Shown here in pieces: positions 1,416 to 48,977 of a stretch of 52,643 bases of DNA. Each line of letters opens with the position of its first letter. Position 1 is the first letter of the stretch. Under the pieces are notes generated by a model. That model had not been told where the DNA came from. It did not search any database and saw nothing but the letters and a program-made list of their open reading frames with translations. The translations under genes were made by a program, and so were the position numbers. Source of the DNA: a virus (lineage: Duplodnaviria; Caudoviricetes); IMG/VR virus record IMGVR_UViG_3300025137_000058, positions 1 to 52,643 of that record; one strand, written 5' to 3'.

Positions 1416-4043
1416 ATGATTAGATATAGAAAATCAATGAGAGATGCTTTAGGTGAAGTTAGAGGTCTTGTAGAGGATGCTACAACATCATACCCTCCTA
1501 AAGAAATTAATAAAAAGAAACATGATGCTTACAAAGACCCTAAAAAAGGTGAAAAAGAAATTCAAGAAGAAGACCCATCAATTGATGACATTGCGAAAGG
1601 TTTGAAGTTAGATAAGAAACTTGTTAAGAAGATAATGGGTGAAGAAATAAATGATTTACAGGAAATACCTGCTAGTCTAATGCAAGACCTAAGAAAGACT
1701 TTTGAACCATTAAGAGGTAAAAAAATATCAGTTGATAATAGTAATAAATTATCGGCGATTATGAATAAGTTTACATCAAAAGCAGATTTAATTACTTTGT
1801 TTAAAGCAGATATTCCATTTATATCTTTATTAGCATCCACTAGATTAATTCAAAAATTTGGTATGAGTGGTGCCCAAATTAATAAACTAAGAGAAGAAGT
1901 TGAACTTGATGAGATGTTTGACTATGCAATCATAGATGGTGATAATAAAATCCTAGGATTGTATAAAGGTCAAGACGGAAAAAAACATGCACAGATGAAT
2001 TTAAAAGGTGCAGAAAGACAACTTGGTATTAAGAAACCTCTTAAAGTTAGACCAGTGAGTAAAAAGAAAGTTGGTGACACAGTCATAGGTATTGGAGAAG
2101 AAGTTGAACTAAAAGAATTTTCATCACAACAAATTAAACAAGCATATGGTATTGCAAATGACCCTAGATATAAACAAGGTAATATGTCAGGTGCCGTAAA
2201 TGCTATTGAAAAAATTGCAAAAGGATTATCTAAACATCCAGATGTGCAAAAAGTTTTAAAAAGAACACAAGAAGAAGTAGAACTTGATGAAACACTTTTA
2301 GAATTTAAAAAAGGTGATATAGTTATTCCTAATGTAGGTCCTCACAAAGGTGTTAAACATGAAATAATTCACGATTTCAAAGATGGCACATACAACATAC
2401 AACCTGATATAGCATTAGCAAGAAATATTAAATATAGATTAGGCGCCGCTAGAGCAAAAGCAAGTGAACTTGTTGGTGTTGATGAAGAAACTGTTCCTGC
2501 AAATGTAAAAAAGATTGCTAAAGAATTAGACAAAGCAGTTGCTATGCACAAAAGTCAAGCACAAAGATTGCGTAAAGCAGGTGTTAGTGAAGAAGATAAA
2601 CTTGATGAAATGGGTTCTATCAAACCAAGACACTATGATGTAGAAGTAACAATTAAAAATAGAAGAGATGCTAAAGCAGTTGATGAATACATATCTGATA
2701 ACATGAGTATGGGTATAGAAGATTACGATAATGATGGTATAATGACTGCTAGTGGTTACACAGAAGGTACAGTTAACTTTCATGGTGATGATGCAGGTCA
2801 TATCGGTGTTGAATTACAAAAAAAGTTTGGAAGTAAAATAAAAGTTGTTGGTGAACAAGTTGAGATTAAGGAAGAGGTTGCAGATATATTTGTACAAAAT
2901 AAAGTTGGTTCTGAGCATCAAGTTCAAATTGCATTAACAATAAAAGCACTTGCAAATAAATTAGGATTAAGAAATGGTTCAGTAGGACCTGTAGTTAGAG
3001 TAATGGGTCCGAAAAATGTTGTGAATCAATTTCTAGGTTCTGTTATTGGTAAATCAAGTATGGGTAATGCAACACAAAAAGGAACAATTCCTAAAGACTA
3101 TGACAAAAGTTTAAATAAACAACTAAGAGAAGAAACACTAGAACTTGGTGAAGGTACTATGAAGGGTGGACTGATAACTGATAGAGTAGATGACATACTT
3201 AAAATAGGTCCAAAATTTGTTGCTTTAATTAGTCGAAAACCAACAGTACAACAATTAGAAAGAATGTGTGTACAAGAATTGTTTGATGATTCATTACTAG
3301 ATGATTTCTATTACATTGACCCTAGTTCAAAAGGTATTGTAAAGAGTGGTAATCCTGAAGCAAAAAAGGCGTATGGTAAACATGCTAGAGTACTACACAG
3401 TGTAGACCCTAGAAGTGTTTTACAATACAATTTAGCAGGTAGAACATTTCAAGGTAGAAGTGATGGTTTAATGTTACACAGTTTAGGCGCCGCCATGTTA
3501 GCATTTCATCTTGCTGATTTAGGAATACCAGCAATAAAAATTAACCCAGATTTAGAATTGTTTGATAATCCTAAATATAAGGGAACACAAAAAATAAGTC
3601 CTGATGTTATACTAAAAAACTTTAGAGTATCAAAATCTGATGTTTTGCGTGTGATACAAATGCATATGAGAGATATGAGTGGACCAGAAATAAGTAAATT
3701 AGTTTCTATCTCACCAAAAAGTTTACAATATCAATTTAAAGAAAATTCACAACATGCAGGTGCTAGAGGATTAGTTGAAAGATTAACGGGTATGGATTTA
3801 ACTGAAGTAAATGCTGATGTAACAAAAAGTCTTACAAAGAAATCAAAAGCATCAGGTATTCCCTTAGGTATATTAAAACAAGTTTTCAAAAGAGGAATGG
3901 CGGCGTTTGGTAGTGGTAGTAGAACTAACATGTCCCAACACGGATGGTCACACGCAAGAGTAAATTCTTTCATAGCAAAGAAACCAGGCACTTGGGGTGG
4001 AGCAGATAAAGATTTAGCAAAACAGGCGAGGAGTTCAAAATGA
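1416..4043 (+). CDS. Large modular putative head-internal polyprotein
   Basis: ORF track 1293..4043; the start is more likely the ATG at 1416, right after the upstream stop. Repeated EEVEL(D/K)E linkers. C-terminal SGIPLGILKQVFKRGMAAF..WSHARVNSF module. Confidence 0.7.
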   Translation: MIRYRKSMRDALGEVRGLVEDATTSYPPKEINKKKHDAYKDPKKGEKEIQEEDPSIDDIAKGLKLDKKLVKKIMGEEINDLQEIPASLMQDLRKTFEPLRGKKISVDNSNKLSAIMNKFTSKADLITLFKADIPFISLLASTRLIQKFGMSGAQINKLREEVELDEMFDYAIIDGDNKILGLYKGQDGKKHAQMNLKGAERQLGIKKPLKVRPVSKKKVGDTVIGIGEEVELKEFSSQQIKQAYGIANDPRYKQGNMSGAVNAIEKIAKGLSKHPDVQKVLKRTQEEVELDETLLEFKKGDIVIPNVGPHKGVKHEIIHDFKDGTYNIQPDIALARNIKYRLGAARAKASELVGVDEETVPANVKKIAKELDKAVAMHKSQAQRLRKAGVSEEDKLDEMGSIKPRHYDVEVTIKNRRDAKAVDEYISDNMSMGIEDYDNDGIMTASGYTEGTVNFHGDDAGHIGVELQKKFGSKIKVVGEQVEIKEEVADIFVQNKVGSEHQVQIALTIKALANKLGLRNGSVGPVVRVMGPKNVVNQFLGSVIGKSSMGNATQKGTIPKDYDKSLNKQLREETLELGEGTMKGGLITDRVDDILKIGPKFVALISRKPTVQQLERMCVQELFDDSLLDDFYYIDPSSKGIVKSGNPEAKKAYGKHARVLHSVDPRSVLQYNLAGRTFQGRSDGLMLHSLGAAMLAFHLADLGIPAIKINPDLELFDNPKYKGTQKISPDVILKNFRVSKSDVLRVIQMHMRDMSGPEISKLVSISPKSLQYQFKENSQHAGARGLVERLTGMDLTEVNADVTKSLTKKSKASGIPLGILKQVFKRGMAAFGSGSRTNMSQHGWSHARVNSFIAKKPGTWGGADKDLAKQARSSK

Positions 4044-4855
4044 GTTATTTAGAAACAAAAACAGGTAGTCTTGAAGAGGCAATCAGAAAGCATGATGAAG
4101 ACTATCAAGCAATGTTTAAAAAAGAATTAGATAAATCAGGTAAGTCGATAGGTCAAATGACACCTGATGAAAAGAAAGCATTCTTTAATAAGTTAGATAA
4201 AATGCATACTGCAAAGAATGAAGCAAAGGTTGACGAGTTAACTAAAGCACAAAAGAAGTTACCACCTGGATTGCAAAAAGCAATCAAGAAAAAGGAAATG
4301 AAAGAAGAACAGATTGATGAGGTTAATTTAACCTTTATTAGAAAGTTTGCAGACGATATGAAGAAGGACAAACAGTTTAAACCATTCGCAGATAAGTTTA
4401 TGAAAATGGCAATGAAGGGTGGTAGTCCAAGAGATGCACTTGAAAAATCATTACCAGATTATATCTCTGGTAAAGACATAGAAAAATTAATTGATAAAAA
4501 TAGAATGAGTGCTATATTTGGTGAAGATGTGCGTGAGTCAAAACAAGGTAAAGTTGATGTATTGAAAACAAAACTTGCTAAAGAGAAAGACACAGACGCA
4601 TTGCAAAAACAAATAACACAGTTGACAGGTCAGTTAGCATTAGCAAAACAAAAATTAGAAAACGAAAAGCACGGAAAATTACAACCTGAACCTAATCCTG
4701 AAACAGGTGAAGTTCCGTTAACAGTTGGTATTGCATACAAACATTTAAGAGATAAGATGAAAAAAGAAGAAGAGAAAAAACCAATAAAGAAAACTATGGT
4801 AGGGTCAAAAGCAGATAAAGTTGATACGGAACCTGAGGTTGAATTCGACAGATAA
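4040..4855 (+). CDS. Charged modular hypothetical (putative internal protein)
   Basis: 271-aa ORF overlapping the previous stop; KVDEL and EEQIDE linkers. Confidence 0.6.
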   Translation: MSYLETKTGSLEEAIRKHDEDYQAMFKKELDKSGKSIGQMTPDEKKAFFNKLDKMHTAKNEAKVDELTKAQKKLPPGLQKAIKKKEMKEEQIDEVNLTFIRKFADDMKKDKQFKPFADKFMKMAMKGGSPRDALEKSLPDYISGKDIEKLIDKNRMSAIFGEDVRESKQGKVDVLKTKLAKEKDTDALQKQITQLTGQLALAKQKLENEKHGKLQPEPNPETGEVPLTVGIAYKHLRDKMKKEEEKKPIKKTMVGSKADKVDTEPEVEFDR

Positions 4856-5346
4856 TGGATTCATCTACAAGAATTTATTGTGATATGGATGGTGTGCTTT
4901 GCGATTTTGCGAGAAACATTAAAACAACAACGGGAATGACAATCGATAAGTGGATGCGAGTCGATAAAAACGAAAGATGGAAAAAAATAATAGAAAAGGG
5001 TACTTTTTGGTCAACAATGCCATGGTTAAATGATGGTAAAAATCTTTGGAGATTTATAGAAAAGCATGACCCATATATTTTATCCGCCGCATCTCAACAA
5101 GACCCTAATTGTAAACCTGGAAAAATGCAATGGATAGCAAGAAACTTAGGTATACCTAGAAGTAGAGTTCATCTAGTTCAAAGACATGAAAAACAGATGT
5201 TTGCAAAGACGGGTGGTCAACCTTGTATTTTAATAGATGACTATGGCAGAAATACAAAAGAATTTACAACACGAGGTGGTGTTGGTATCAGATTTCAAAA
5301 TGCTGGTCAAGTTATCAGAGAATTGAAAGGACTTGGTTTCAATTGA
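4855..5346 (+). CDS. HAD-family 5'(3')-deoxyribonucleotidase-like protein
   Basis: HAD motif I DMDGVL, ILSA, and LIDD motif. Confidence 0.85.
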   Translation: MDSSTRIYCDMDGVLCDFARNIKTTTGMTIDKWMRVDKNERWKKIIEKGTFWSTMPWLNDGKNLWRFIEKHDPYILSAASQQDPNCKPGKMQWIARNLGIPRSRVHLVQRHEKQMFAKTGGQPCILIDDYGRNTKEFTTRGGVGIRFQNAGQVIRELKGLGFN

Positions 5347-5347
5347 T

Positions 5348-5355
5348 TATAAATA
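5348..5355 (+). promoter_or_regulatory. T4-type late promoter
   Basis: Exact TATAAATA in an intergenic position, upstream of SD AAGGAG and pqqA. Confidence 0.75.
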
Positions 5356-5378
5356 CTTTTTTAATTAAGGAGAAATTT

Positions 5379-5453
5379 ATGTGGAAGAAACCAGAAATAA
5401 AAATGATAAGTGTAGGATTAGAAATTAATTGCTATGCTTGTGCAGAAATATAA
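5379..5453 (+). CDS. pqqA: PQQ precursor peptide (24 aa; absent from ORF track)
   Basis: Manual translation MWKKPEIKMISVGLEINCYACAEI*. Has the W-x-x-P N-terminus and the G-x-E-x-x-x-Y core; strong SD AAGGAG. Confidence 0.88.
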   Translation: MWKKPEIKMISVGLEINCYACAEI

Positions 5454-5498
5454 ACAATTAAATTAACAAAGTGAGTACCTAAAAAGGGAGAGAATATT

Positions 5499-5804
5499 AT
5501 GTCAAGTTGGTCAAATACAGATGCTCATGGTAGTGCGCCGTTATGGGCACTAGCAAGGGTAAATAAAGAACCTAAAGCGGCGAACATGGGCGCCGCCGCA
5601 TCAGGTAAACTATTTAATAACGCAACAGAAGATAATCTTATAGATGGAGTGACTATCGGTCTTTTTAATTTTAAAGACGGAGAAGAACAAAGTGGTAAGA
5701 TTGCTCATGTTGGTTGGAATTTAAAAACTACTGGAACAGGAGGTCGTGCTAGTAGAATACAATTCGAAACTTTAGTATCTTTGGCAAATAGTCAAGATGC
5801 ATAA
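5499..5804 (+). CDS. Hypothetical, probable virion protein
   Basis: SD GGGAGAG; IAHVGW..GTGGRASRIQFETLV motif seen in T4-like structural regions. Confidence 0.6.
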   Translation: MSSWSNTDAHGSAPLWALARVNKEPKAANMGAAASGKLFNNATEDNLIDGVTIGLFNFKDGEEQSGKIAHVGWNLKTTGTGGRASRIQFETLVSLANSQDA

Positions 5805-5815
5805 TTAACTTAACA

Positions 5816-5889
5816 AGGGACACTTTACGGTGTGGGGTGTCCCTACTAATTGATGTAAGTAAATACTTACAGTAGCATTCCCGAAAGGG
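5816..5889 (+). other. Candidate structured intergenic RNA (three hairpins)
   Basis: agggacactttac/gtggggtgtccct, tgtaagta/tacttaca and ccc-GAAA-ggg stems, directly before the SD. Confidence 0.5.
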
Positions 5890-5904
5890 TTTAAAGGAGA
5901 TAAA

Positions 5905-6366
5905 ATGGCAGATAAAAAAATTACAGCATTAACCGATTTAGGTAATGGTCTAGCATCAGTAGATTTGTTTCATGTAGTTGACGACCCTACAGGAACACCT
6001 ATCAATAAAAAAATTACAGCAGAAGATGTATTTAATAATATACCGACATGGTTAGGATTAAATTCTACTTCACAAGCAATTACTGGAGATGGTTCAACAT
6101 CAACAGCAATTAATATTACAACACCAGTTACAGAAGTTAACGCAACTTCCGCCGCCGCTCCTTGTACATTGGCAGATGGAGCAAACGGTCAAATAAAAAC
6201 TATTATAAATGTTTCTACAAGTGGTACAAACAATATTGTAATAACACCTAGTAATTTGAGAGGATATGCAACAATAACTCTTAATGCACCTGGTGAAACA
6301 GTGACTTGTATGTTTAAGAATAGTAATTGGAATGTAATCGCAGGTAATGGTTACGCATTAGCATAA
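5905..6366 (+). CDS. Probable virion structural (fibre-like) protein
   Basis: MADKKITALTDL N-terminus; T/S/N/G-rich beta-type composition. Confidence 0.65.
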   Translation: MADKKITALTDLGNGLASVDLFHVVDDPTGTPINKKITAEDVFNNIPTWLGLNSTSQAITGDGSTSTAINITTPVTEVNATSAAAPCTLADGANGQIKTIINVSTSGTNNIVITPSNLRGYATITLNAPGETVTCMFKNSNWNVIAGNGYALA

Positions 6367-6381
6367 TAAGGAAATTTTAGA

Positions 6382-6609
6382 ATGAGTATATCAAAAAAAC
6401 TTTTAGTGGTTGAAAAACAAAAATTAGAGCAAGACTTTAATGCTCTATCTGAAAAATTAAAACAAAGTGAACTATCTATGCAAGGTTTAAGAAATAATTT
6501 AAACGCAATACACGGTGCTATGCAACAAGTGGACAAGTTATTAGGTATGTTTACAGACGATAAAGATGAGAAGGAAAAATCAGATGGTAAAGTCGTTCAA
6601 AAAACATGA
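6382..6609 (+). CDS. Small coiled-coil hypothetical
   Basis: 75-aa ORF with SD AAGGA and a heptad pattern. Confidence 0.6.
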   Translation: MSISKKLLVVEKQKLEQDFNALSEKLKQSELSMQGLRNNLNAIHGAMQQVDKLLGMFTDDKDEKEKSDGKVVQKT

Positions 6610-6730
6610 TAAAGATAGAGAAGTAGAAGAATTTGAAGAAGATTTAACACAAGGAAAATCTTCTAAAAAAAACGAAGAGAAGAATAAAAACGAAGAAAAT
6701 AACGATAGAGGAAAAAATGAAAACATTTAA
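6584..6730 (+). CDS. Small charged protein with CTS-like start (absent from ORF track)
   Basis: Manual translation MVKSFKKHDKDREVEEFEEDLTQG..ENI* (48 aa); SD AAGGA; fills the gap between neighbours. Confidence 0.55.
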   Translation: MVKSFKKHDKDREVEEFEEDLTQGKSSKKNEEKNKNEENNDRGKNENI

Positions 6731-7145
6731 ACAACATGTGAAAGAAGACCATGGTAGTATGGGTGTCGGTACATCTGACCAAAATGCTATTGAAGATGGT
6801 TCTATAGGTGTGCATAATGTACATGACCCTGATGTTTTAAAAAGAGTTAACATATTTGTTAATTCTATGTCTATGAAAGAATATTTAAGTCCTGACCATG
6901 CAATAACTGAACTAAGAAATAAACTTATGAGAATAGGTTTAAATTTTGGTCCTGTTGGTTTTGATGAAAATAAAGGAGACCAAACAGTAAGAGTAAGTAG
7001 ATTTAAAACATTTGGTAAAGCAGATGACGGACAAGACATTGATAATGATGGTATCGAAGATGTGAAAGAAGGTGGTCTTAATCTAAGAATTAGACACGAA
7101 AAATCAAGTGAAGGAACATCAAAGGTATATTGCGAATTGATATAG
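6717..7145 (+). CDS. Conserved T4-like hypothetical with CTS-like start
   Basis: Starts MKTFKQHVKE. Confidence 0.7.
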   Translation: MKTFKQHVKEDHGSMGVGTSDQNAIEDGSIGVHNVHDPDVLKRVNIFVNSMSMKEYLSPDHAITELRNKLMRIGLNFGPVGFDENKGDQTVRVSRFKTFGKADDGQDIDNDGIEDVKEGGLNLRIRHEKSSEGTSKVYCELI

Positions 7146-7508
7146 ATGTTTCACACAATAACGAAAGAGAACTGGTTATTATTCGCACAAAAGCATTATG
7201 ATAACCCTACTTTAGAAAAAGAAGTAGAATTTTATGATGATTTAAAGAGATTTAAATATCTTAAAAGACTTTTTCGTAAGTATGATACTAATTCAAGATT
7301 AAAAGTTCGATTAGCATTGAATCATATTATTGTGTTACAAAACGTGTTTGGTGTTGAACCATGCGTAACATTATTACTATATAAGATAGATAATAAACAC
7401 TATGGTATTTTGAAAGCAATATTAAATTATTTACAGTATTTGTATCCAGATGAATTAAATTTTGTAAAAGAGGATAAAATAGTAAGGGAACAACTAGAGA
7501 GGTTATAA
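7146..7508 (+). CDS. Conserved T4-like hypothetical
   Basis: FAQKHYDNP..FYDDLKRFKYLKRL..RLALNHII..NVFG pattern. Confidence 0.75.
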   Translation: MFHTITKENWLLFAQKHYDNPTLEKEVEFYDDLKRFKYLKRLFRKYDTNSRLKVRLALNHIIVLQNVFGVEPCVTLLLYKIDNKHYGILKAILNYLQYLYPDELNFVKEDKIVREQLERL

Positions 7509-8122
7509 TGTCAACAAAAGGTAATAGAGCAATAGATATGTTAATTACATATCGAGTATTGAAAATATTAACCACACCATTTGAAAAACAAGATGCTTTT
7601 AAATTCGGTATTATAGATAAAAATGGTAAAGTGTTAAGAAGATATAAAGATGTATCAAAGTCAGATGAGAAAAAAACATATACCTGGTTACATAGATTTG
7701 TTTTTAATATCAAAAGATTATTAGGTAAAGCAGGTCTTGGTGGAAGATTAGGTAGTTTAGGAGTAGCACTAGCACTTTTATTAAAAGAGGAGGAGTATAT
7801 TAGTAGACAACCTGCTAAGATGAGAAGACTTCTAGAACATACTGCTGGTGATTATAAGAAATATGATAAAGTTTTTGAGTCAGCAATTGTTCAATACTGT
7901 AAACATATTGGTATATGGGAAACATTAATAAAAGAAGATGCAAATCTACCATCAACTTCAATAGCAGTTTTACAAGAAAAATTTGAAAAAAATCCTGATA
8001 TGAAATTAACAGCAAATTATTTTGGTTGTGATATATTTGAAAATGCAGATAAAAGAATTGTTACTTCATCTAGGTCAAACAACGCCATTGGAAGTTTTTT
8101 AGGTAGAGGTTCATCAGTATGA
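7508..8122 (+). CDS. Conserved T4-like hypothetical
   Basis: RVLKILTTPFEKQDAFKFGIIDKNGKVL..HRFVFNIKRLL pattern. Confidence 0.7.
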   Translation: MSTKGNRAIDMLITYRVLKILTTPFEKQDAFKFGIIDKNGKVLRRYKDVSKSDEKKTYTWLHRFVFNIKRLLGKAGLGGRLGSLGVALALLLKEEEYISRQPAKMRRLLEHTAGDYKKYDKVFESAIVQYCKHIGIWETLIKEDANLPSTSIAVLQEKFEKNPDMKLTANYFGCDIFENADKRIVTSSRSNNAIGSFLGRGSSV

Positions 8123-9630
8123 AAACATTTAAATCATTAGCACATGAAATGATAACAAAGGTAGATGAAGATGCTCCTGCTAATGCAGTGGGTACAGGTG
8201 CAAATGTGGCGTTACCACCAACACACGAACCTGGTGTTAAGAAAAAGAAGAAGAAGAAACACGACCCTATTTTAATGAACACCCTTAAAAGAAAAGTAGA
8301 AGAGAATAACGACAACAATAGTACAATGCTCAAAGGAGTATTAGATAAACTAGAACAGTTAGATACAATTGTTGATGAAGTATCAGGTGTAAAAAAAACG
8401 GATATATTTGAACAAGATTTTCAAAGCGAATACACCACATTTAAAGACAAATATATGGGTCAACTTTTAAATGAAACAGATACGGCGGCGGCGAAAGAAA
8501 TGGAACAATTGTTAGTTGATTGTGCAAGAAATGTTGCAAAAGATAATAATTATAATAAAGTTAAGAAAAAAATGGGAAGAGATGGTGATCCTGTGAAGTT
8601 AGGTAAAAGTATACTTACAAAAATAGGTAATCCAACATCTGGTATGATGATGAAAAGTGGTGATATAAACGGAAAGGTTTGGGGACCTGGACCTTATGAG
8701 GGTGAAAAACAATGGATAGGTACTCAACCCACTGCTAAAACGGATATAATATTAGATAAAATGAAAATATCTTTAAAAACAGGTAGTGCCCAATTAATGT
8801 CAGGTACTCCTGAAGAAACGGAATCAACTATGAGATATGCTATTAGAAAAGTTGGTGAAAAAAGAAATCGTGAAACTGAAAACATAAGTAACAATATTGT
8901 TGATGAAATAAATAAATTATTACGAAGTGGTGAACTTGACCCAAAATTTCCTGGTGGTGTCGATTTTCAGAAGAAGGGTGGAACTATAAAATATTTTGTA
9001 GGTACAAAACCAGTTACTCAAAAGGTTAAAGGTTGGGATAAAGGTGACATTGATGCTGAATTACAAAAAGCAGACAACTTCAATTTAAAATTTAAAGATG
9101 AATTAAGTACATTTTTTAATAATAATCTTGATTTCAAAACATTTTTTGTCTATGAGGCGATGACAGGTGAAACCAAATTTGATAAAGGTGATGCAACAGC
9201 AGACCATTTTTTAGTTGTTGATTATTCAGGTAGTGCAAATTTACATCAAGTTAGATTTCCTGGTAGTAATTATGTTAATTCTATTTTAAGACAAGTTAAA
9301 CCTGATGTTAAATTTAAAACTGCTCAAAGAAAAAGAAAAATTGATGGTACAAAATATGGGCAAGGATTTTATAGTATTAGGTCAGTTGTTGGTTTAGGAT
9401 ACAAAGCAATAGCACAAGCACAAAACGAATGTTTTGAAATGACAAAAGATACAAATTTTTTAACAGAAGGTATTATTGATAGAATAAAATCAATTTGGTC
9501 AAAAACAAAAAATTTCATTTCAGGTCTTATAAGAGATGTAAAACTATTCTTATCAAAAAGCATATCTAATATTATGGAATTTTTAGGTGTAGAACCTGAA
9601 GTTAGATTTAATAATACAGTAAGATGGTAA
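8119..9630 (+). CDS. CTS-like protein with possible PD-(D/E)XK nuclease-like domain
   Basis: MKTFKS start, EDAPANAVG module, then AKTDII..KISLK. Confidence 0.55.
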   Translation: MKTFKSLAHEMITKVDEDAPANAVGTGANVALPPTHEPGVKKKKKKKHDPILMNTLKRKVEENNDNNSTMLKGVLDKLEQLDTIVDEVSGVKKTDIFEQDFQSEYTTFKDKYMGQLLNETDTAAAKEMEQLLVDCARNVAKDNNYNKVKKKMGRDGDPVKLGKSILTKIGNPTSGMMMKSGDINGKVWGPGPYEGEKQWIGTQPTAKTDIILDKMKISLKTGSAQLMSGTPEETESTMRYAIRKVGEKRNRETENISNNIVDEINKLLRSGELDPKFPGGVDFQKKGGTIKYFVGTKPVTQKVKGWDKGDIDAELQKADNFNLKFKDELSTFFNNNLDFKTFFVYEAMTGETKFDKGDATADHFLVVDYSGSANLHQVRFPGSNYVNSILRQVKPDVKFKTAQRKRKIDGTKYGQGFYSIRSVVGLGYKAIAQAQNECFEMTKDTNFLTEGIIDRIKSIWSKTKNFISGLIRDVKLFLSKSISNIMEFLGVEPEVRFNNTVRW

Positions 9631-12213: not shown

Positions 12214-12214
12214 T

Positions 12215-12610: not shown

Positions 12611-12629
12611 TCGATTTTTTGACTTTTAT

Positions 12630-39531: not shown

Positions 39532-39634
39532 AGCAGAAAAGGCGAAAGCAAGGTGTACTGACACCGATATGATAAACTTTTGGGATAGAGTTATAAAGTA
39601 TTTTGAAAATAAATTAGAGAGGACATATCATTAA
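39500..39634 (+). CDS. Small hypothetical (absent from ORF track)
   Basis: Manual translation MTDLIEKRISRAEKAKARC..FWDRVIKYFENKLERTYH* (44 aa); SD GGAGG. Confidence 0.6.
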   Translation: MTDLIEKRISRAEKAKARCTDTDMINFWDRVIKYFENKLERTYH

Positions 39635-41496: not shown

Positions 41497-41788
41497 TTTT
41501 GAAAATACAAAGACTGGTAAAGTTTTTGAGAAGTTTATTTCTATTTCTGACAAAGAAAAGTATTTAAAAGATAATCCAGATATAAAACAATGTGTTTCTG
41601 GAATAAATATAGTAGGTGGAGTTTCTGGTATATCATACAAATCTGATAGTGGTTGGAATGATAATTTAACTAGAATTGCAGAAGCACACCCACAAAGTAA
41701 TTTAGCAAAAAATCAATTAAGAAGAAGCACAAAACAAGTTAAGACTGAAAATGTCTTAAAAAAACATAGAAAGAGAAACAGATGGTAG
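41483..41788 (+). CDS. FmdB-like protein (degenerate zinc ribbon)
   Basis: MPTYDFENTKTG..YLKDNP; the Cys ligands are missing. Confidence 0.55.
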   Translation: MPTYDFENTKTGKVFEKFISISDKEKYLKDNPDIKQCVSGINIVGGVSGISYKSDSGWNDNLTRIAEAHPQSNLAKNQLRRSTKQVKTENVLKKHRKRNRW

Positions 41789-42183
41789 ATATTCCAGATT
41801 ATATGCGAGGGTTTGATTTAGATGAAGATTATGGATTTACTACTGTCCAAGCAAAACCAAAAACAGAAACATCTGTTGATAAGAAAGTGGTGGAAAATAC
41901 TAACATAGAATTATCAAAAGTAAAAAACGATTTATCAGATTTAAAATCAATGATGAACGAAGTATTACAAGTGGTTGCAGAAAAAGATGATATAACAAAA
42001 GAGATAGAAGATACAGAAGTTCTTAAAAGATTTAAAAGCATAGAAAAAGTCATATTACCATTTTTATATAATCTGAGTAAAACAGATGAACCTTACATAC
42101 ATTGGCCTAATAGAGGTCCTATTATAAAAGCACAAATAGATAAGATATTAGAATTAACAAGAGGTAGAGATGGAACTAAGTAA
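41782..42183 (+). CDS. Conserved T4-like hypothetical
   Basis: DYGFT; ILPFLYNL..YIHWPNR. Confidence 0.65.
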   Translation: MVDIPDYMRGFDLDEDYGFTTVQAKPKTETSVDKKVVENTNIELSKVKNDLSDLKSMMNEVLQVVAEKDDITKEIEDTEVLKRFKSIEKVILPFLYNLSKTDEPYIHWPNRGPIIKAQIDKILELTRGRDGTK

Positions 42184-42679
42184 AAACTTTACATTAAGAG
42201 AGATGACAAGGTCACAAACTGCTACTAGAAAAGGACTAGATAATAAACCTTCTGGAACCCACGAAGCAAATTTAGTATTACTTTGTCAAAACATATTACA
42301 ACCATTAAGAGATTATTATGGTAGACCTTTAAGAGTAACATCTGGTTATAGAAGTCCAGAATTATGTGTTGCTATCGGGTCATCAATTAATTCACAACAC
42401 GCAAAAGGTCAGGCGGCGGATTTTGAGATACCAGGTGTATCAAATAAAGATTTAGCAGAACACATCAGAGATAATTTAAGTTTTGACCAATTGATATTAG
42501 AGTTTCATAGTCCAGTAGACCCTATGAGTGGTTGGGTACATTGTTCTTTTAATAACAAAGTTGAAAATAGAAAAGAATTTTTAAGAGCATATAAAGATAA
42601 TGGTAAAACAAAATATGAAATGTATAGTAATGAAGTATTTGCAACTGAAAGTGATATAGTGAGTGGTTCAAAAAAATAA
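42170..42679 (+). CDS. Peptidase M15A (possible endolysin)
   Basis: LSKNFTL; SGYRS; SQHAKGQAAD; DQLILE; WVH. Confidence 0.88.
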   Translation: MELSKNFTLREMTRSQTATRKGLDNKPSGTHEANLVLLCQNILQPLRDYYGRPLRVTSGYRSPELCVAIGSSINSQHAKGQAADFEIPGVSNKDLAEHIRDNLSFDQLILEFHSPVDPMSGWVHCSFNNKVENRKEFLRAYKDNGKTKYEMYSNEVFATESDIVSGSKK

Positions 42680-43049
42680 AACTGATGACCATTTTATTGA
42701 AGAAGATGATTATGTATATGCAGGCAATCATTTAATAGTAGACATATATGGTTACGATAAAGAGTATAGAGATTTTAATCATCTATTAGCAAAAGCATCA
42801 CATCTTGCAGGTGCTAAATTGCTCTACTCATATACACATGATTTTGACAATGGTGGTATTACAGGTGTCGCCATATTAGCAGAATCACATATATCATTTC
42901 ACACTTGGGCAGAGAGAGATTATATTGCATTTGATGTCTTTATGTGTGGTGACACACAACCATACAAAGCAATTAATTTTATCAAAAAAGAATTGAAAGC
43001 AGAAGACGTGAAAATTAAAATAATTAAAAGAGGTAAAATTGCAAAGTAG
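42663..43049 (+). CDS. speD: Pyruvoyl-dependent AdoMet decarboxylase-family proenzyme
   Basis: GNHLIVD; GITGVAILAESHISFHTW; DVFMCG. Confidence 0.85.
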   Translation: MVQKNKTDDHFIEEDDYVYAGNHLIVDIYGYDKEYRDFNHLLAKASHLAGAKLLYSYTHDFDNGGITGVAILAESHISFHTWAERDYIAFDVFMCGDTQPYKAINFIKKELKAEDVKIKIIKRGKIAK

Positions 43050-43407
43050 TTGGGGTTTCCATTTGATATTAGATTGTAAAGGTAGTAAAATGTCTAAAGA
43101 GTTAGTCAAAGATGCTAAATTTATAAAGGAGTTTACAAAGATTTTAGTAGATGGTATTGAGATGAAAGCATATGGTGAACCTATTATAGAACACTTTGCA
43201 ACGCACGAAGAAAATGCATCAGGTTATAGTTTGGTGCAATTAATAGAAACATCAGCAATCACAGGTCACTTTTGTGATATCAATGGTGATTTTTATTTAG
43301 ATATTTTTAGTTGCAAGAGTTTCAGCATTGACATTGCAAAAGAAATAGTGTATAGTTACTTTAAACCTAAATTAATAAGAGAAACATTTTTAACTAGACA
43401 GGCATAA
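43039..43407 (+). CDS. Second, divergent AdoMetDC-family protein
   Basis: WGFHLILDC; GYSLVQLIETSAITGHF; YLDIFSCK; TTG start after SD GAGG. Confidence 0.75.
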   Translation: MQSSWGFHLILDCKGSKMSKELVKDAKFIKEFTKILVDGIEMKAYGEPIIEHFATHEENASGYSLVQLIETSAITGHFCDINGDFYLDIFSCKSFSIDIAKEIVYSYFKPKLIRETFLTRQA

Positions 43408-43411
43408 TATA

Positions 43412-44098
43412 ATGAAATTTAATTTTATAGACATAGACAAGAGTGTATTACCTACTGCAAAAGGTAGAAGAAAAGGTAAGTATCGTTTTTATGAAGTAAA
43501 TGGTACAAACTATCCAAGTGTTACATCCGTTCTAGGTGTAAGAAAGAAAGTAGAACTTCAACAGTGGAGAGATAGAATTGGCGAAAATGTTGCTAATTGG
43601 GAAATGGGTAGGGCGGCAAGACGTGGTACTGCAACACACAATCTTATAGAAAACTACATCAAAGGTGAACCACTCACAGAAAAGAGTGTACTACCTTTAG
43701 GTTTATTTAAGTTAATGAAACCTTATGTTGATAAGATAGAGAATATACATTGTTTAGAAACAGTATTATATTCTAGTAAGTATAAATTAGCAGGTCAAGT
43801 AGACTGTATTGCAGAGTATGATGGTGAATTATCAGTAATTGATTTTAAGACTGCTAACAAAGAACGAAAAGTAGAGTGGATTGAAAACTATTTCTTACAA
43901 TGCACTGCATATGGTTTAATGTATGAAGAATTATTCGAAAAACCTATAAAGAAGATAGTTTTAATCATAGGTGGTGAAGATGGTTCTATGGTGACTCATG
44001 TAAGAAATAAAGAAGATTACATACCTAAATTAGAAGAAGTCGTAGAAGACTTTTATAAGATGTTTAATCTGGAGTATAATGAGCAACAACTTTCATAG
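43412..44098 (+). CDS. PD-(D/E)XK exonuclease
   Basis: YPSVT; RGTATH; AGQVDC; IDFKT; YFLQ..AY. Confidence 0.88.
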   Translation: MKFNFIDIDKSVLPTAKGRRKGKYRFYEVNGTNYPSVTSVLGVRKKVELQQWRDRIGENVANWEMGRAARRGTATHNLIENYIKGEPLTEKSVLPLGLFKLMKPYVDKIENIHCLETVLYSSKYKLAGQVDCIAEYDGELSVIDFKTANKERKVEWIENYFLQCTAYGLMYEELFEKPIKKIVLIIGGEDGSMVTHVRNKEDYIPKLEEVVEDFYKMFNLEYNEQQLS

Positions 44099-44726
44099 AT
44101 ACATCAAATTGCCTTTCGATTTTATAAAACCTTCTGAAACTATGAGAACAATGAGTTCTGAACAAGAAGAAAAAACTTCTATATGGGATACAGAGAAAAA
44201 AGGTAAAACAGATGTATACAAATTCAATATACCAGAATTAAATGAAAATGTAAAATCCTTCTTAGATGACTATGATTTGTTTTATAATACAAAATTAATG
44301 TTTTATACAAGTCCTAAAGACAGGATAAATATTCATGTTGATAGCAACAAAGATGCAAATTATTTAAACGATACAAAGAACTATTTTGATAACCATGTTA
44401 AACTAAATTATACTTGGGAAAATGAAAATAGTTCTTTGAGATGGTGGAAAACAGAAGATAATAATAATCTGAAGGTAGATACACATACTTATGAAAATGG
44501 TAAGACATGGAAGGTCATATGGGCAGAAGAGGGTAAATGTCAAATGATATATGAAAAACGAATTGATAAACCAAGTATTGTAAATACAGGAATGTTACAT
44601 TCTACAAATAATCCATCAAATAAAGAGAGGATTACATTGTCATACAATTTAGTTAAAAAAGAAAACTTACAACTTTTAACTTTTGATGAGATAGAAGAGG
44701 TTTTTGGAGATTTATTATATGAATAA
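44079..44726 (+). CDS. Putative 2OG-Fe(II) oxygenase-fold protein
   Basis: IHVD..KLNYTW..PSIVNTGMLHS..RITLS. Confidence 0.6.
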   Translation: MSNNFHRYIKLPFDFIKPSETMRTMSSEQEEKTSIWDTEKKGKTDVYKFNIPELNENVKSFLDDYDLFYNTKLMFYTSPKDRINIHVDSNKDANYLNDTKNYFDNHVKLNYTWENENSSLRWWKTEDNNNLKVDTHTYENGKTWKVIWAEEGKCQMIYEKRIDKPSIVNTGMLHSTNNPSNKERITLSYNLVKKENLQLLTFDEIEEVFGDLLYE

Positions 44727-45429
44727 GTACCATAGATACATAAACGTACCTTTCGAACTAAAAGAACCACCTTTAAATCGTTATGCTGATGATGAAGAGT
44801 TCAGAGTTAAGGGTAGATGTGGATTAGACCAGTGCAAAGACAGATGCGAGTTCGCAAATATTAATGCTTGTTACGACCAAGATTTTTTTAAGTGGTTGAA
44901 ACTATCATTAAAAGTGAATGAGGATAAAGTTCAAGATTTTTTAGCAGAATATGGTTTGTTTAGTGATAATATATTATATTTTATTACCAAACCTGATGAT
45001 AAGATGATTGTGCATATAGATAATAATAAAGAAGAATATTATCTTGCAGAAGAAAGAAAAATAGAAGATTACTTAGATGACCATGCTAAGATTAATTTCA
45101 CTTGGGGACCTAAAGAAAGCACAATGCGTTGGTGGTCAAGTGATAAAAAAGATATTAGTATAGAAAGTGATGTTGATGAAGACGGTAATGATTGGAAATT
45201 AGTTATAGGTAACGAGAAGAAAAGTAAACTACTGTACGAGAAATCGATTTATAAACCAAGTCTTGTAAATGCAGGAGTTTTGCATTCCGTTTACAATCCA
45301 TCAAAAATAGAAAGAAGAATAACACAATCTTTTAATATAGTAGACAAGAGAAAAATAAAGTTAGTATCTTTTCAAGATGCAGTTGAAATATTTGATAAAT
45401 ATATAACGGAACAAGAGGAAATAGCATGA
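44719..45429 (+). CDS. Putative 2OG-Fe(II) oxygenase-fold protein (tandem paralog)
   Basis: VHID..KINFTW..PSLVNAGVLHS..RITQS. Confidence 0.6.
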   Translation: MNKYHRYINVPFELKEPPLNRYADDEEFRVKGRCGLDQCKDRCEFANINACYDQDFFKWLKLSLKVNEDKVQDFLAEYGLFSDNILYFITKPDDKMIVHIDNNKEEYYLAEERKIEDYLDDHAKINFTWGPKESTMRWWSSDKKDISIESDVDEDGNDWKLVIGNEKKSKLLYEKSIYKPSLVNAGVLHSVYNPSKIERRITQSFNIVDKRKIKLVSFQDAVEIFDKYITEQEEIA

Positions 45430-45989
45430 CTTCAAAAACAGTAAAATACACAGTATATGAGAATACAGAAGCACCAACAACTTGGAGTAATAGTGATAAT
45501 GATGTTACAGTTGTAAATGACGGAACTACGCACATTGTTATTAGTGATTTAGACCACACTACTTCTAGAAGTGGTAATGTAGTTAGACAAGGTACATTTG
45601 ATTTAGACTTAACAAAAGATACTACTCTTAATTCAAAATTTTTTACTAATATTGGTGGTGAAGAAATTGTATCAACATTTAATGTTGTAATATCACCTCA
45701 AGGCGGTACTAGTTATAATCTTGTAGCAAAATATGTTGATGAAACAGATTCAACAACATTAGAAGATGCAGTAGAAAATGATAGTTTTGATGATTGGTGT
45801 AAATTTAAAATAAATGGTGTAACAAAGCATACATTAGATTCATTAAGTGTGGGTGAGCAACAATTAGGAACTCATGCACATACATGGAATGGGTCTGATG
45901 CATTATCAATCGAATATGAGGCAAGTCAAAGAAATATTGATGACTCATCATATCAAACAGCATTTAGTGTAAAATTTGACATAACCTAA
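45426..45989 (+). CDS. T/S/D-rich hypothetical
   Basis: 187-aa ORF with beta-rich composition. Confidence 0.55.
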   Translation: MTSKTVKYTVYENTEAPTTWSNSDNDVTVVNDGTTHIVISDLDHTTSRSGNVVRQGTFDLDLTKDTTLNSKFFTNIGGEEIVSTFNVVISPQGGTSYNLVAKYVDETDSTTLEDAVENDSFDDWCKFKINGVTKHTLDSLSVGEQQLGTHAHTWNGSDALSIEYEASQRNIDDSSYQTAFSVKFDIT

Positions 45990-46003
45990 ACTAATTTATT
46001 ATT

Positions 46004-47137
46004 ATGAGATTTGATGGATTAATACCTGGTTATCAGGTGGATGTGAATGTAAATAATAAATCTTCAGTAAACAGATATTGGGATTATGGTAGAATTGTTG
46101 ATGGTAAGAAACAATTAGACCCACATTTACATTATGGTTGTTATCTTCTAGGATATAAACAATTAGATTTTATAACAAAAACACAAATACAGATGATACT
46201 ATCTGAACTACCAGAAGTTGGTGAGAACTTTCTATCTTCAGATGAACTATATCTAAACAGTAGAAGTTTTGAGTTAGCAACAAAAATAAAAGAGATGAGT
46301 GGTGGATTTAAAAGTTTCTATGCACTATCAGGTAGTGATGCAAATGAAGGTGCTATCAAATTAGCATTTGCATATAATCAGAAAAAAGGTAATGATAAAA
46401 GAAAAGTCATATTAAGTTTTGATGGTAGTTATCACGGTTCTACATATCTAACTCAATCAGTCGGTAATACTTTATTTAATGAAGACCCATTTTATGGAGT
46501 ACCAAAATATAATTGGAGTAGAATAATTGATAGAAATGATGACATTACAAAAACAGTTGATTTAGAAAAAGTAGCATGTATTATAGTAGAAACACATACT
46601 TATGCTAAGAAATTAAAACCATATACAGAGAAGTTTTGGAAGAATTTAGAAATCATTAGAATCATGTACGATATTCCTATAATTGTAGATGATATATTCA
46701 TGGGTGGTGGTAAATTAGGTAAGTTCTTTGGTTGGGAGACAACATCATTTAGACCTAGTATATTTACAATGGGTAAATCAATCACTGGTGGTCATTTTCC
46801 ATTATCAATGACTTGTTATGACAGTTATATTGATGACGCATTAGGTGATGATTTTAATTGGGACCATGGATATACATATTCTTTTTATCAACCAGGTATT
46901 ATGAGTATGTTATACTATCTTGAAAAATTAAACTTTGATAATTTTGATAAAATTAGAAAAACAGTCACAGAAATATTTGAGAAAAATGACTTTGAAATAC
47001 AAGCAAATGCTGGTATTATTTTTAGCACTAAACGAGAAAAACCATATCATCTAATAGCACCTTTAAATGCTACTGATGAATATTATGACGTGTTAAATAC
47101 AACATTGACAAATTTAAAAGAAAGTGTTATAACATAG
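46004..47137 (+). CDS. Class III PLP aminotransferase
   Basis: SGSDANEGAIK; SYHGST; IVDDIFMGGGKLG; MGKSITGG; HGYTY. Confidence 0.85.
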   Translation: MRFDGLIPGYQVDVNVNNKSSVNRYWDYGRIVDGKKQLDPHLHYGCYLLGYKQLDFITKTQIQMILSELPEVGENFLSSDELYLNSRSFELATKIKEMSGGFKSFYALSGSDANEGAIKLAFAYNQKKGNDKRKVILSFDGSYHGSTYLTQSVGNTLFNEDPFYGVPKYNWSRIIDRNDDITKTVDLEKVACIIVETHTYAKKLKPYTEKFWKNLEIIRIMYDIPIIVDDIFMGGGKLGKFFGWETTSFRPSIFTMGKSITGGHFPLSMTCYDSYIDDALGDDFNWDHGYTYSFYQPGIMSMLYYLEKLNFDNFDKIRKTVTEIFEKNDFEIQANAGIIFSTKREKPYHLIAPLNATDEYYDVLNTTLTNLKESVIT

Positions 47138-47138
47138 T

Positions 47139-47315
47139 ATGACAAAAGATAGTTTTGGAAATTTCTCTAATCATATCATTAAGATTGATTGGGCAAAAAT
47201 AGAATGCTCAGGACAAGATAATAGTCACCCGAAGGTTTACTATCATCTTAAAGTAGGCGAAACAAAACAATGTGCATATTGCAACTTAACCTGGAAGAGA
47301 ATAAAATTATTATGA
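47139..47315 (+). CDS. zf-CHCC zinc-finger protein (absent from ORF track)
   Basis: Manual translation ..IECSGQDNSHPKVYYHL..KQCAYC.. (58 aa); C-x6-HP-x-VY..CxYC pattern. Confidence 0.8.
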   Translation: MTKDSFGNFSNHIIKIDWAKIECSGQDNSHPKVYYHLKVGETKQCAYCNLTWKRIKLL

Positions 47316-47524
47316 ATAGTGTTACATTTTATAGTGAAGTAGAAAAGATTAAAAGACAGAAACGAGATATGACATATATGGACGCAGTTGTTTTTTATTG
47401 TGAAGAAAATGATATAGAGATAGAAACTGTAGGTAAATTTATATCAAAAGTTTTAAAAGAAAAGATAGAATCAGAAGCAAGAGATTTAAACTTCTTACCA
47501 AAAGTAGGAAAATTACCTATATGA
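47312..47524 (+). CDS. gp33: Late-transcription coactivator
   Basis: YMDAVV.YCEEN.IEIE..LKEKIE.EA..LNFL; ATG overlaps the zf-CHCC stop. Confidence 0.85.
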   Translation: MNSVTFYSEVEKIKRQKRDMTYMDAVVFYCEENDIEIETVGKFISKVLKEKIESEARDLNFLPKVGKLPI

Positions 47525-48141
47525 CACAAGTAACATTGATGGATAAAATGGGTTCTGACTTATCTGTTGTTAATTCTGCAAGAGTTTCATTTGCAAAAGA
47601 GCATGAAACAATGCAAGATAATGATGAGAAGTTGATTAAATATCTAGCAAATCATAATCATTGGTCACCTTTTGGTCATGGTTCTTTGCAATTTAGAATA
47701 AAAGCACCTGTATTTGTTGCAAGACAGTTAGTTAAACATCAAGTAGGTTTAGTCTGGAATGAAGTTAGTCGTAGATATATTGACTCAGACCCAGAGTTTT
47801 ATGTTCCGTTTTTATGGAGAGAAAAACATGAAAACAAAAAGCAAGGTTCTACTGATAAAGAGGTAGAATATGATATTACACCTTTGATTAAGAAATCAAA
47901 AGAGATGTATCAAGATATGTTAGATAGTAATATTGCACCTGAGTTAGCAAGAATGATATTACCTCAATGTATGATGACAGAGTGGATATGGTCAGGTACA
48001 TTATATGCTTTTGCTAGAGTATGTAATTTAAGAAATAAACCAGATGCTCAACAAGAAACAACTGAAGTTACAAGAGATATAGCACATCATATGAAGGACC
48101 AGTTTCCTATTAGCAGTAAATATTTGTTAGAGAATGAATGA
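47521..48141 (+). CDS. thyX: Flavin-dependent thymidylate synthase
   Basis: VNSARVS; HWSPF; ARQLVKH..WNEVSRRY; ARMILP; LR..AQ.E. Confidence 0.95.
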   Translation: MTQVTLMDKMGSDLSVVNSARVSFAKEHETMQDNDEKLIKYLANHNHWSPFGHGSLQFRIKAPVFVARQLVKHQVGLVWNEVSRRYIDSDPEFYVPFLWREKHENKKQGSTDKEVEYDITPLIKKSKEMYQDMLDSNIAPELARMILPQCMMTEWIWSGTLYAFARVCNLRNKPDAQQETTEVTRDIAHHMKDQFPISSKYLLENE

Positions 48142-48977
48142 AAAGAGTATTTTGTATTGGTAATGGTGAGAGTAGAAAGGGTGTTAATTTAGACACACTA
48201 AAACCTCATGGTAAAATATATGGGTGTAATGCTATATATCGAGATTATACACCTGACGTATTGATTGCAGTTGACCAAGGTATCATACACGAGATATATC
48301 ATAGTGGATATGCATACAATAACGAGTGTTACTTTAGAAATTGGCACTTACATGATGAAAAGAATTTCAACATAACAGTTTACGGAACTGAAGATAAAGA
48401 GGTGATAGATTTCATAAAGAGTCTAAATTTATTGACAGTAAATAAAAAAGGTAATAGCACAAAGTTTGCTATGGGTGGACCTGCACTATATCAGTTTGCA
48501 AAACAAGTTAAAAAGAATCCAGCAAAATTAAAACAGTATCAAGAATCATTTAAAGCAAAGGTAACTTGGGTTGAAAATGATAAGGTCAATAGTATTAAAG
48601 AAGAGCAAGGTGGTCAGGATTTAGGTTGGGCGGCAGGTTGCACTGCTATATGGTTTGCGATTAGGAATGAAGAACCACAACAAGTTTATTTAATTGGACA
48701 TGATTTAAATAGTAAGACAGATTTAATTAATAATATGTACAAGGGTACACCTAATTATAGTGGAGTATCACATAAAGAAACACCGTCAAATAATTGGTTG
48801 ATACAGTTGAATGCACTTATAAAAGAAAATCCTGATATAGCATTTTATAAAGTAAACAGAGAACCTATTGATAACAATTGTAAAGTAAATAGACAACAAC
48901 CACAATTAAGAGGTCATAAAAATTTAGTGTATATTACATATGAACAATTACAAAGGAGCATTGACAATAAGTGGTAA
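48138..48977 (+). CDS. Conserved hypothetical (Rossmann-like, IGNGESR family)
   Basis: IGNGESR; YGCNAIYR; YLIGHD; NMYKGT.NY. Confidence 0.6.
   Translation: MKRVFCIGNGESRKGVNLDTLKPHGKIYGCNAIYRDYTPDVLIAVDQGIIHEIYHSGYAYNNECYFRNWHLHDEKNFNITVYGTEDKEVIDFIKSLNLLTVNKKGNSTKFAMGGPALYQFAKQVKKNPAKLKQYQESFKAKVTWVENDKVNSIKEEQGGQDLGWAAGCTAIWFAIRNEEPQQVYLIGHDLNSKTDLINNMYKGTPNYSGVSHKETPSNNWLIQLNALIKENPDIAFYKVNREPIDNNCKVNRQQPQLRGHKNLVYITYEQLQRSIDNKW

Follow-up and report, generated by a model that had tools for sequence, protein, structure and literature searches.

Loss of RGCY, GCWGC and GATC words from a marine T4-like phage contig is consistent with avoidance of Type II restriction sites

Restriction-site avoidance is a textbook phenomenon, said to have been treated in earlier work by Sharp, Karlin and Rocha. 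Here we describe an extreme instance in IMG/VR virus record IMGVR_UViG_3300025137_000058 (Caudoviricetes), whose entire assembly, 52,643 bp with 30.9% GC, was analyzed and is called the window below; it has been purged of the words RGCY, GCWGC and, almost entirely, GATC by synonymous codon choice. According to the text of Rusinov 2018 (PMC6286503), it is orthodox Type II sites that are avoided, by dsDNA phages other than temperate ones; such avoidance is near-complete in about a tenth of phage genomes and is not shown by phages with hydroxymethylcytosine, and the pattern in the window fits this description. As in the cases treated there, short and mostly palindromic Type II-like words have been lost silently, on both strands, in a lytic-type phage; the difference is that the main word of the window, RGCY, is the equivalent of a 3-bp site, of which about 160 copies per 52 kb were removed, and that it has no known cognate host enzyme. 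The text of that study, supplements aside, mentions Pelagibacter 0 times. Depletion of GANTC in about half of 33 pelagiphages was reported by Seong et al. 2022 (PMC9516812), who likewise grouped SAR11 phages by the loss of a methylase or restriction word, but their text deals with that one word, mainly in podophages, whereas the window is a myophage that lost three others. The enzyme described as cutting at RGCY is CviJI of Chlorella virus IL-3A (PMC3681635); its recognition word comprises exactly the four words missing from the window, but it is encoded by a virus of a eukaryotic alga. We found no report of RGCY, GCWGC or GATC purges in pelagimyophages, though supplements might hold motif tables. 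The purge is thus a known kind of phenomenon in a new and extreme form.

On the + strand of the whole window, GCAGC, GCTGC, AGCT, AGCC and GGCT each have 0 copies, GGCC has 3, GATC 6 and GANTC 73, against maximal-order Markov expectations of 66.6 for AGCT, 15.8 for AGCC, 18.1 for GGCT, 4.3 for GGCC and 142.6 for GATC. As a stricter null model, synonymous codons were shuffled 500 times within each of the 88 + strand open reading frames (ORFs), keeping the protein and the per-gene codon usage. RGCY was observed 3 times against 163.5 in the shuffles (standard deviation, sd, 9.4; z -17; lowest shuffle 136), GATC 6 times against 111.7 (sd 7.6; z -13.9; lowest shuffle 87) and GCWGC, on both strands, 0 times against 19.5 (sd 2.3; z -8.6; lowest shuffle 13). 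This comparison is conservative, because the codon usage that the shuffles preserve was itself shaped by avoidance. The original prediction, made by eye, had claimed that GCWGC and RGCY are avoided and GATC is scarce, and had named counts near expectation under codon-preserving shuffles as the outcome that would speak against it; all three words lie far below every one of the 500 shuffles. It had also held that GANTC is not purged, which agrees with the mild deficit seen in the ORF set (68 vs 102.7). Among words that it did not list, CGCG has 0 copies in the whole window, GCGC 5 and CCGG 7; the absence of CGCG is not significant in the window alone (0 vs 5.4 in shuffles, lowest shuffle 0) but reaches significance in the larger relatives (Mosig, 0 vs 45 by Markov). 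The loss is strand-symmetric, with AGCC and GGCT, and likewise GCAGC and GCTGC, at 0 in equal measure though all genes lie on one strand, which argues that duplex DNA rather than mRNA is recognized. Words that offer an escape route are in excess: TGCT (178 vs 88.5), CGCCGC (13 vs 0.4) and GCSGC (23 vs 5.1).

The codons of the window follow simple rules that produce this result. Single alanines are mostly written GCA or GCT, as had been noticed (703 of 779 Ala codons), and all 22 Ala-Ala pairs open with GCC or GCG; the Ala-Ala positions picked out by eye all fall on these pairs. The base before GCT is T (153) or C (2) and never A or G, the base before GCC is T or C only, AGC is followed only by A (43) or G (6), and GGC only by A (10) or G (12). 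Asp-Gln and Asp-His are written with GAC in 19 of 19 and 23 of 23 cases, in line with the original prediction, which had also held that GGCC appears only where Trp-Pro forces it. Trp-Pro is the sole dipeptide that forces GGCC, and the 3 copies of GGCC are the only 3 Trp-Pro pairs (TGG-CCT) in the window. The 6 residual GATC copies are all GAT-CCW at Asp-Pro, and the remaining 33 Asp-Pro pairs use GAC (coordinates in Table 1). Separately, we noted that Asp-Pro following a codon that ends in G kept GAT in 4 of 4 cases and that GGACCC has 0 copies and GGGTCC 1; in this small sample GGACCC seems to be shunned even where a GATC has to be kept instead. We also noted 3 Trp-Pro pairs where residue frequencies predict 7.8 (Pro-Trp, 7), a weak hint of the GGCC purge reaching into protein sequence.

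Judged by sequence similarity, the nearest cultured kin of the window are the SAR11 phages Mosig (EXVC030M) and HTVC008M (Kyanoviridae). Pelagibacter phage Mosig shares 74% nt identity in the primase and ribonucleotide reductase (RNR) block, 81.6% aa identity in NrdA and 77% in gp32; HTVC008M shares 72% nt identity and 75.6% aa identity in NrdA. In tblastn searches, 48 of the 88 ORFs matched Mosig, collinear with Mosig from 141 to 105 kb, and the T4-like core (gp32, primase, NrdA/B, ThyX, a tail-tube-like ORF and baseplate ORFs) stands in shared order. In 14 ortholog pairs between the window and Mosig, 40 of 73 Mosig RGCY sites lie on identical residues and were lost in the window by codon choice alone, as were 4 of 11 Mosig GCWGC sites; the remaining 33 RGCY and 7 GCWGC sites sit where the residues differ. 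The silent swaps from Mosig to the window include GCA-GCT to GCC-GCC and GGC-CAG to GGT-CAA.

SAR11 DNA of similar composition was also examined (382.7 kb from five genomes, 28.7-32.8% GC, observed vs Markov). RGCY stood at 1086/1114, 429/459, 266/266, 360/378 and 678/690 in the five genomes, and GATC, GCWGC and TCATGA were close to the Markov expectation and at or above the expectation from composition. Only GAWTC and CpG-containing words were low, and scarcity of GAWTC is a published SAR11 feature (PMC8919816, in its text). Because SAR11 DNA of like GC is undepleted, the purge is not an effect of composition.

The two relatives carry word sets of their own, as seen from observed/Markov counts over their whole genomes. 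Mosig has been purged of GATC (19/366), ACGT (0/166), CGCG (0/45) and TCATGA (1/20) and retains RGCY (790/926) and GCWGC (126/140); an annotated partial adenine methylase is present in Mosig, yet GATC is avoided. HTVC008M has been purged of TCGA (2/95), GAWTC (28/171), GASTC (15/69), CGCG (1/68) and TCATGA (0/18) and is partly low in GATC (83/379) and RGCY (262/717, 2.7-fold, in all four words). Both phages thus resemble the window in synteny, in core proteins that are 56-82% identical, in GC content and in low GATC, CGCG, TCATGA and CATCG, but differ in that RGCY and GCWGC are not fully purged and that ACGT (Mosig) or TCGA and GANTC (HTVC008M) are lost instead.

A wider survey took in 80 IMG/VR loci of 4-22 kb that surround NrdA homologues with 70-83% aa identity, which with the window, Mosig and HTVC008M make 83 sequences. 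A word was called eliminated at 10% or less of the expectation from composition, where that expectation was at least 8; given short loci and an expectation that runs too high for CpG words, results for single loci are soft. At least one word was eliminated in 75 of the 83 sequences, the eight others being loci L021, L033, L040, L051, L063, L078, L083 and L086. The sets {ACGT, GATC}, {CATG, TCGA, CCGG}, {TCGA} and {CATG} recur, and {CCGG, GCGC, CGCG} recurs in higher-GC, cyanophage-like loci. RGCY and GCWGC pass the elimination test in the window alone; AGCT is eliminated in 6 of the 82 other sequences, and one 4.4-kb locus (L035) has RGCY at 3/27. Four loci with near-identical NrdA from different metagenomes (L016, L024, L028 and L030) share 0 copies of CATG, TCGA, CCGG and CGCG and 0-1 of CATCG, which indicates that a set can stay stable within a clade. 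In an NrdA tree of the 83 sequences (LG+G4, quick search, one gene, with Shimodaira-Hasegawa-like approximate likelihood ratio test [SH-aLRT] support only), the window falls with Mosig and HTVC008M in a 64-row low-GC clade (SH-aLRT 100), apart from a 19-row higher-GC clade, and its nearest rows (L008, L011, L012 and L017) have other word sets. The minimum numbers of state changes on this tree were 8 for GATC, 9 for ACGT, 15 for TCGA, 8 for CATG and 5 for AGCT, so that the sets follow clades in part yet are frequently replaced. The purge in the window belongs to a wider pattern, apparently unreported so far, in which the sets differ between lineages.

Similar purges were seen in unrelated phages of the same host group, namely three cultured podophages of SAR11 strain HTCC1062 (35-42 kb, Markov expectations). 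HTVC011P has GATC at 0/81, TCGA at 0/23, GGCC at 0/10, GCWGC at 3/41, GGWCC at 0/14, CCWGG at 0/27 and GAWTC at 1/46, HTVC019P has GATC at 0/95, GGCC at 0/20, GGWCC at 0/16, CCWGG at 0/25 and GCWGC at 13/49, and HTVC010P has ACGT at 3/20 and GGCC at 0/6. CGCG has 0 copies in all three. HTVC011P and HTVC019P are both at zero for GATC, GGCC, CCGG, GCGC, CGCG, GGNCC, CCNGG and TCATGA, with TCGA at 0 and GANTC at 1 as well in HTVC011P, a purge broader than that of the window and far broader than the published GANTC depletion. For each word avoided in the window, one or more cultured SAR11 phages show full or partial avoidance, which for RGCY is partial only and confined to HTVC008M. This sharing across phage families points to a common pressure on the host side. 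The original prediction had proposed the avoided words as a route to host prediction; their occurrence in cultured SAR11 phages is suggestive in this respect, but the words are common restriction targets.

We therefore looked for candidate enzymes in SAR11 genomes, which were located with a 16S probe and then taken as one genome per species of the family Pelagibacteraceae. A full-length 5-methylcytosine (m5C) methylase (PF00145, E<=1e-10) was found in 71 of 401 genomes, a floor because many genomes are partial, and several of the methylases stand in tandem pairs (e.g. in genomes G243, G062, G124, G179 and G275). Across 31 of these loci, 121 ORFs were scanned and gave 33 methylases, 6 EVE-domain proteins, 3 AIPR proteins and, as nucleases, 6 of the Bsp6I family (28-48 bits, cut-off 25), 2 of the Eco47II family, 1 HNH and 1 EndoVII/His-Me. 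Eco47II reads GGNCC, Fnu4HI reads GCNGC, and TseI and ApeKI read GCWGC. The target of M.Bsp6I is given as GCNGC in the text of PMC2790894. The purge of GCNGC and GGNCC in HTVC011P fits the Bsp6I- and Eco47II-family nucleases in SAR11. GCWGC is the sole purged word of the window with a plausible host counterpart, a Bsp6I-family nuclease next to an m5C methylase in 6 of the 31 loci. The window resembles what the Bsp6I/Fnu4HI and TseI/ApeKI systems would select in lacking GCWGC; it differs from the former in over-using GCSGC (22-23 copies), so that the agent would need W at the centre, and the SAR11 enzymes are known by family only.

The reading we favor, at a probability of roughly 0.78, is that a phage with unprotected DNA has avoided orthodox Type II restriction sites in the classical manner, under pressure from varied, strain-specific host enzymes. 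The phage DNA would enter cells with ordinary, unmethylated cytosines, any site for a Type II enzyme of the host population would be a liability, and selection would have removed all silently removable copies of RGCY and GCWGC and nearly all of GATC, probably CGCG and TCATGA too, and in part CATCG, ACGCT and GTCTC. A single CviJI-like enzyme would most simply account for RGCY, all four words of which are gone, including the non-palindromic AGCC/GGCT. The cost would be forced codons: GCC or GCG at Ala-Ala, GCT after T or C only, AGC and GGC before a purine only, and GAC before C. We infer a SAR11-like host, host enzymes as the selecting agent and a single enzyme as the reader of RGCY. The original prediction had attributed the pattern to host restriction systems, and this holds as far as the depletion is word-specific, strand-symmetric, silent and absent from the SAR11 samples; on the enzyme side it found a counterpart for GCWGC only. 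Its suggestion that the cytosines are not broadly protected is a fair reading, given that no methylase was found in the 60 of 88 ORFs covered by a Pfam scan and that hydroxymethylcytosine phages are described as free of avoidance (PMC6286503, in its text), but about a third of the genome is covered.

Several points weigh against this explanation. The window represents 52.6 kb of a genome likely to span ~140 kb, the remainder of which may encode a DNA methylase, a pathway for base modification or a nuclease; the Pfam scan took in 60 of the 88 ORFs, leaving 28 small ones. The link to the Bsp6I family concerns GCNGC and the window spares GCSGC, so that the fit is partial. Neither the DpnII nor the MutH/Sau3AI family was found in any of the 401 SAR11 genomes (0/401 each), only 15 of 391 genomes have a Dam-like D12 methylase, and 7 of 12 Dam-like loci adjoin an EF-Tu-like GTPase or GroEL, in the manner of conserved orphan methylases; no known GATC nuclease was seen beside the 12 Dam-like methylase loci. 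The SAR11 scans identified no RGCY-reading enzyme, no search with CviJI sequences having been made, and frequent cutters of this kind are described as extremely rare in nature (PMC3681635, in its text). Apart from CviJI, no enzyme is known to read RGCY. The text of PMC7029224 reports that 1 of >100 SAR11 genomes encodes a restriction-modification system; the m5C methylases in 71 of 401 genomes, some of them paired with nucleases, are at odds with that figure. With regard to a SAR11-like host, the OM43 phage Melnitz is reported as kin of the pelagimyophage group (PMC9004378, in its text); Melnitz was not among the matches listed in DNA and protein searches with the window.

An improbable alternative, though the one that fares best, is that methylation rather than the bare word is avoided: host or orphan methylases would mark the words, and methylation-dependent nucleases (Type IIM or Type IV, DpnI- or McrBC-like) of the next host would cut them. 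The frequency of m5C methylases in SAR11, most of the 31 loci having no recognizable nuclease, is consistent with this, as is the partial adenine methylase annotated in Mosig alongside its avoidance of GATC. EVE domains read modified bases, and EVE-domain proteins stand beside 6 of the 31 methylase loci. However, modification-dependent enzymes are described as showing weak avoidance that is put down to overlap with Type II sites (PMC6286503, in its text), and complete Type II pairs, a methylase with a Bsp6I- or Eco47II-family nuclease, exist in SAR11. Avoidance of methylated words and avoidance of Type II cleavage are not mutually exclusive.

We consider it still less probable that the phage spares itself, that is, that site-specific nucleases of this phage or of rival phages shred the SAR11 chromosome for nucleotides and a genome free of the sites survives. 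In SAR11 DNA these words abound (one RGCY per 150 bp or so), the window encodes a staphylococcal-nuclease (SNase)-like and a PD-(D/E)XK ORF, several lineage-specific ORFs have no assignable function, and two thirds of the genome lie outside the window. Such a scheme would, however, need at least five to eight separate specificities, and 40-kb podophages with 45-59 annotated genes are purged of ten or more words and could not plausibly carry ten nucleases. The same words also recur in unrelated SAR11-infecting phage families, and no restriction-enzyme family was found in the 60 scanned ORFs. The SNase family comprises non-specific nucleases; the SNase-like ORF gave no tblastn match in Mosig or HTVC008M. 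The PD-(D/E)XK ORF is common to both relatives and therefore cannot explain a lineage-specific word set. If self-sparing were true, the words missing from each lineage of marine T4-like phages would be a record of the nucleases that its members wield.

It is very unlikely that the losses follow from mutation bias, base composition, a preference in codons or translation, or selection on mRNA. The window is AT-rich, purine-skewed on its coding strand and CpG-poor (CG odds 0.44), and CpG words are low in SAR11 too, but the shuffles never came near the observed counts, reverse-complement partners are equally absent, close kin and SAR11 of like composition keep the words, and the words at issue are without CpG. 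For RGCY, GCWGC and GATC this explanation is refuted by the shuffles and the SAR11 samples; it remains a partial one for CGCG, ACGT and TCGA. A sequencing or assembly artefact, or a designed, recoded sequence, considered for the cleanness of the purge alone and with no point found in its support, is hardly credible, as independent public contigs and cultured phage genomes show like purges with other words and library preparation by digestion leaves the internal sites of an assembly in place.

No bacterial group in the sea is more abundant than SAR11, which is commonly called nearly devoid of restriction systems (PMC7029224, in its text). Together, the purges and the m5C methylases suggest a real and varied restriction pressure in encounters between SAR11 and its phages. 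Single-molecule real-time (SMRT) sequencing detects m5C poorly, and methylation surveys built on SMRT reads could have missed such systems. Marine methylome surveys of this type give GANTC/GAWTC for SAR11 (PMC8919816, in its text). Full loss of RGCY predicts a very rare enzyme specificity in marine bacteria; that a CviJI-like RGCY cutter circulates in streamlined marine bacteria and that SAR11 holds far more Type II systems than published is a tentative proposal, to which we give somewhat less than an even chance. Once host methylomes and enzyme specificities are known, the word sets could tag uncultured phages to host strains.

Table 1. Features of the window. Observed and expected values for the further low words are strand-pooled counts and shuffles after masking RGCY and GATC.
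Feature	Position	Strand	Observed	Expected	Basis or remark
Whole window	1..52643				Without avoidable RGCY or GCWGC copies, GATC nearly gone; counts and null models
Ala-Ala GCC-GCT, first of 22 pairs	2445..2450	+			Codon scan
Other Ala-Ala pair starts	3489, 3900, 5086, 5577, 5592, 5595, 6151, 6154, 8485, 8488, 10653	+			
Further Ala-Ala pair starts	12560, 14046, 14526, 15819, 17109, 36666, 38515, 42413, 43613, 48630	+			
Forced GGCC (TGG-CCT, Trp-Pro)	19746..19749	+			Codon scan
Forced GGCC (TGG-CCT, Trp-Pro)	28743..28746	+			Codon scan
Forced GGCC (TGG-CCT, Trp-Pro)	42104..42107	+			Codon scan
Residual GATC (GAT-CCT, Asp-Pro)	8587..8590	+			Codon scan
Residual GATC in GGATCC (GAT-CCA, Asp-Pro)	13656..13659	+			Codon scan
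Residual GATC in GGATCC (GAT-CCT, Asp-Pro)	19912..19915	+			Codon scan
Residual GATC in GGATCC (GAT-CCA, Asp-Pro)	23272..23275	+			Codon scan
Residual GATC in GGATCC (GAT-CCA, Asp-Pro)	27316..27319	+			Codon scan
Residual GATC (GAT-CCA, Asp-Pro)	28556..28559	+			Codon scan
Primase, NrdA, PurM-like ORF, NrdB core block	13332..18381	+			Places the window among pelagimyophage kin
PD-(D/E)XK nuclease	43412..44098	+			Common to Mosig and HTVC008M
SNase-like ORF	50804..51208	+			Between gp2-like end protector and baseplate/tail-tube genes
ACGCT/AGCGT			0	18.4	
CATCG/CGATG			3	29.7	Low in Mosig and HTVC008M as well
GAGAC/GTCTC			8	43.7	
TCATGA			0	9.5	0-1 in Mosig, HTVC008M, HTVC011P and HTVC019P
AGCG/CGCT			16	56.2	
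AGGC/GCCT			29	77.4	

Among the further low words (Table 1), GAGAC/GTCTC is an Alw26I/BsmAI-type word and TCATGA is the BspHI word. A CviJI "star" specificity (RGCN/YGCY) was considered for the low AGCG/CGCT and dropped, the star words AGCA, GGCG, CGCC and TGCT being over-represented. CCCC has 0 copies on the coding strand (6.1 in shuffles, 10.6 by Markov) while GGGG has 20-22; this loss is strand-specific and so probably arises at the level of codons or translation rather than from restriction. Homopolymer runs of A or T fall under the shuffle expectation (AAAAAA/TTTTTT, 208 vs 344.7), and AAGGA/AGGA words are low inside genes, possibly reflecting avoidance of internal Shine-Dalgarno-like sites.

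The 88 ORFs, all on the + strand, cover 97.5% of the window. This T4-like marine myophage, read as lytic, likely has a full genome near 140 kb, roughly one third of which lies in the window. The Pfam scan recovered RNR subunits, gp32, ThyX, primase, a denV-like glycosylase, the PD-(D/E)XK and SNase-like nucleases, a sugar-modification cluster and two S-adenosylmethionine (AdoMet)-decarboxylase-like ORFs; a DNA methyltransferase or integrase was not found in the 60 ORFs scanned. No tRNA, transfer-messenger RNA (tmRNA) or Rfam family was found in the window, and the tmRNA/riboswitch locus described for Melnitz and Mosig is absent here. The ORF at 9624-10784 was considered as a DNA methylase and dropped, as it matches Mosig_00205 only and not the adjoining partial "adenine methyltransferase". 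PHROGs gave 1 match for 10 lineage-specific ORFs, to a family with no assigned function, and a protein-atlas comparison of lineage-specific ORFs gave no nuclease lead; the ORF at 10781-11479 gave a weak lead to 2-oxoglutarate-Fe(II) oxygenases.

A sugar- or surface-modification cluster at 19052-31229 encodes a GT8 glycosyltransferase, a cupin, a GFO_IDH_MocA oxidoreductase, a hexapeptide acyltransferase, a DegT aminotransferase, an FkbM methyltransferase and an Fe-S assembly protein, and is purged of the avoided words as fully as the core genes. Compared with bacterial genomes, the DegT aminotransferase (26989-28083) had only 2 distant matches (30-33% identity, in Aminicenantes and Acidobacteriota metagenome-assembled genomes) and gave no clue to the host. 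Finally, two adjoining AdoMet-decarboxylase-like ORFs lie at 42663-43407 (PF02675, E 3e-30 and 7e-14), followed downstream by the PD-(D/E)XK nuclease, three ORFs annotated without function and a class-III aminotransferase, and the decarboxylase and aminotransferase stretch may be a polyamine-related auxiliary module.

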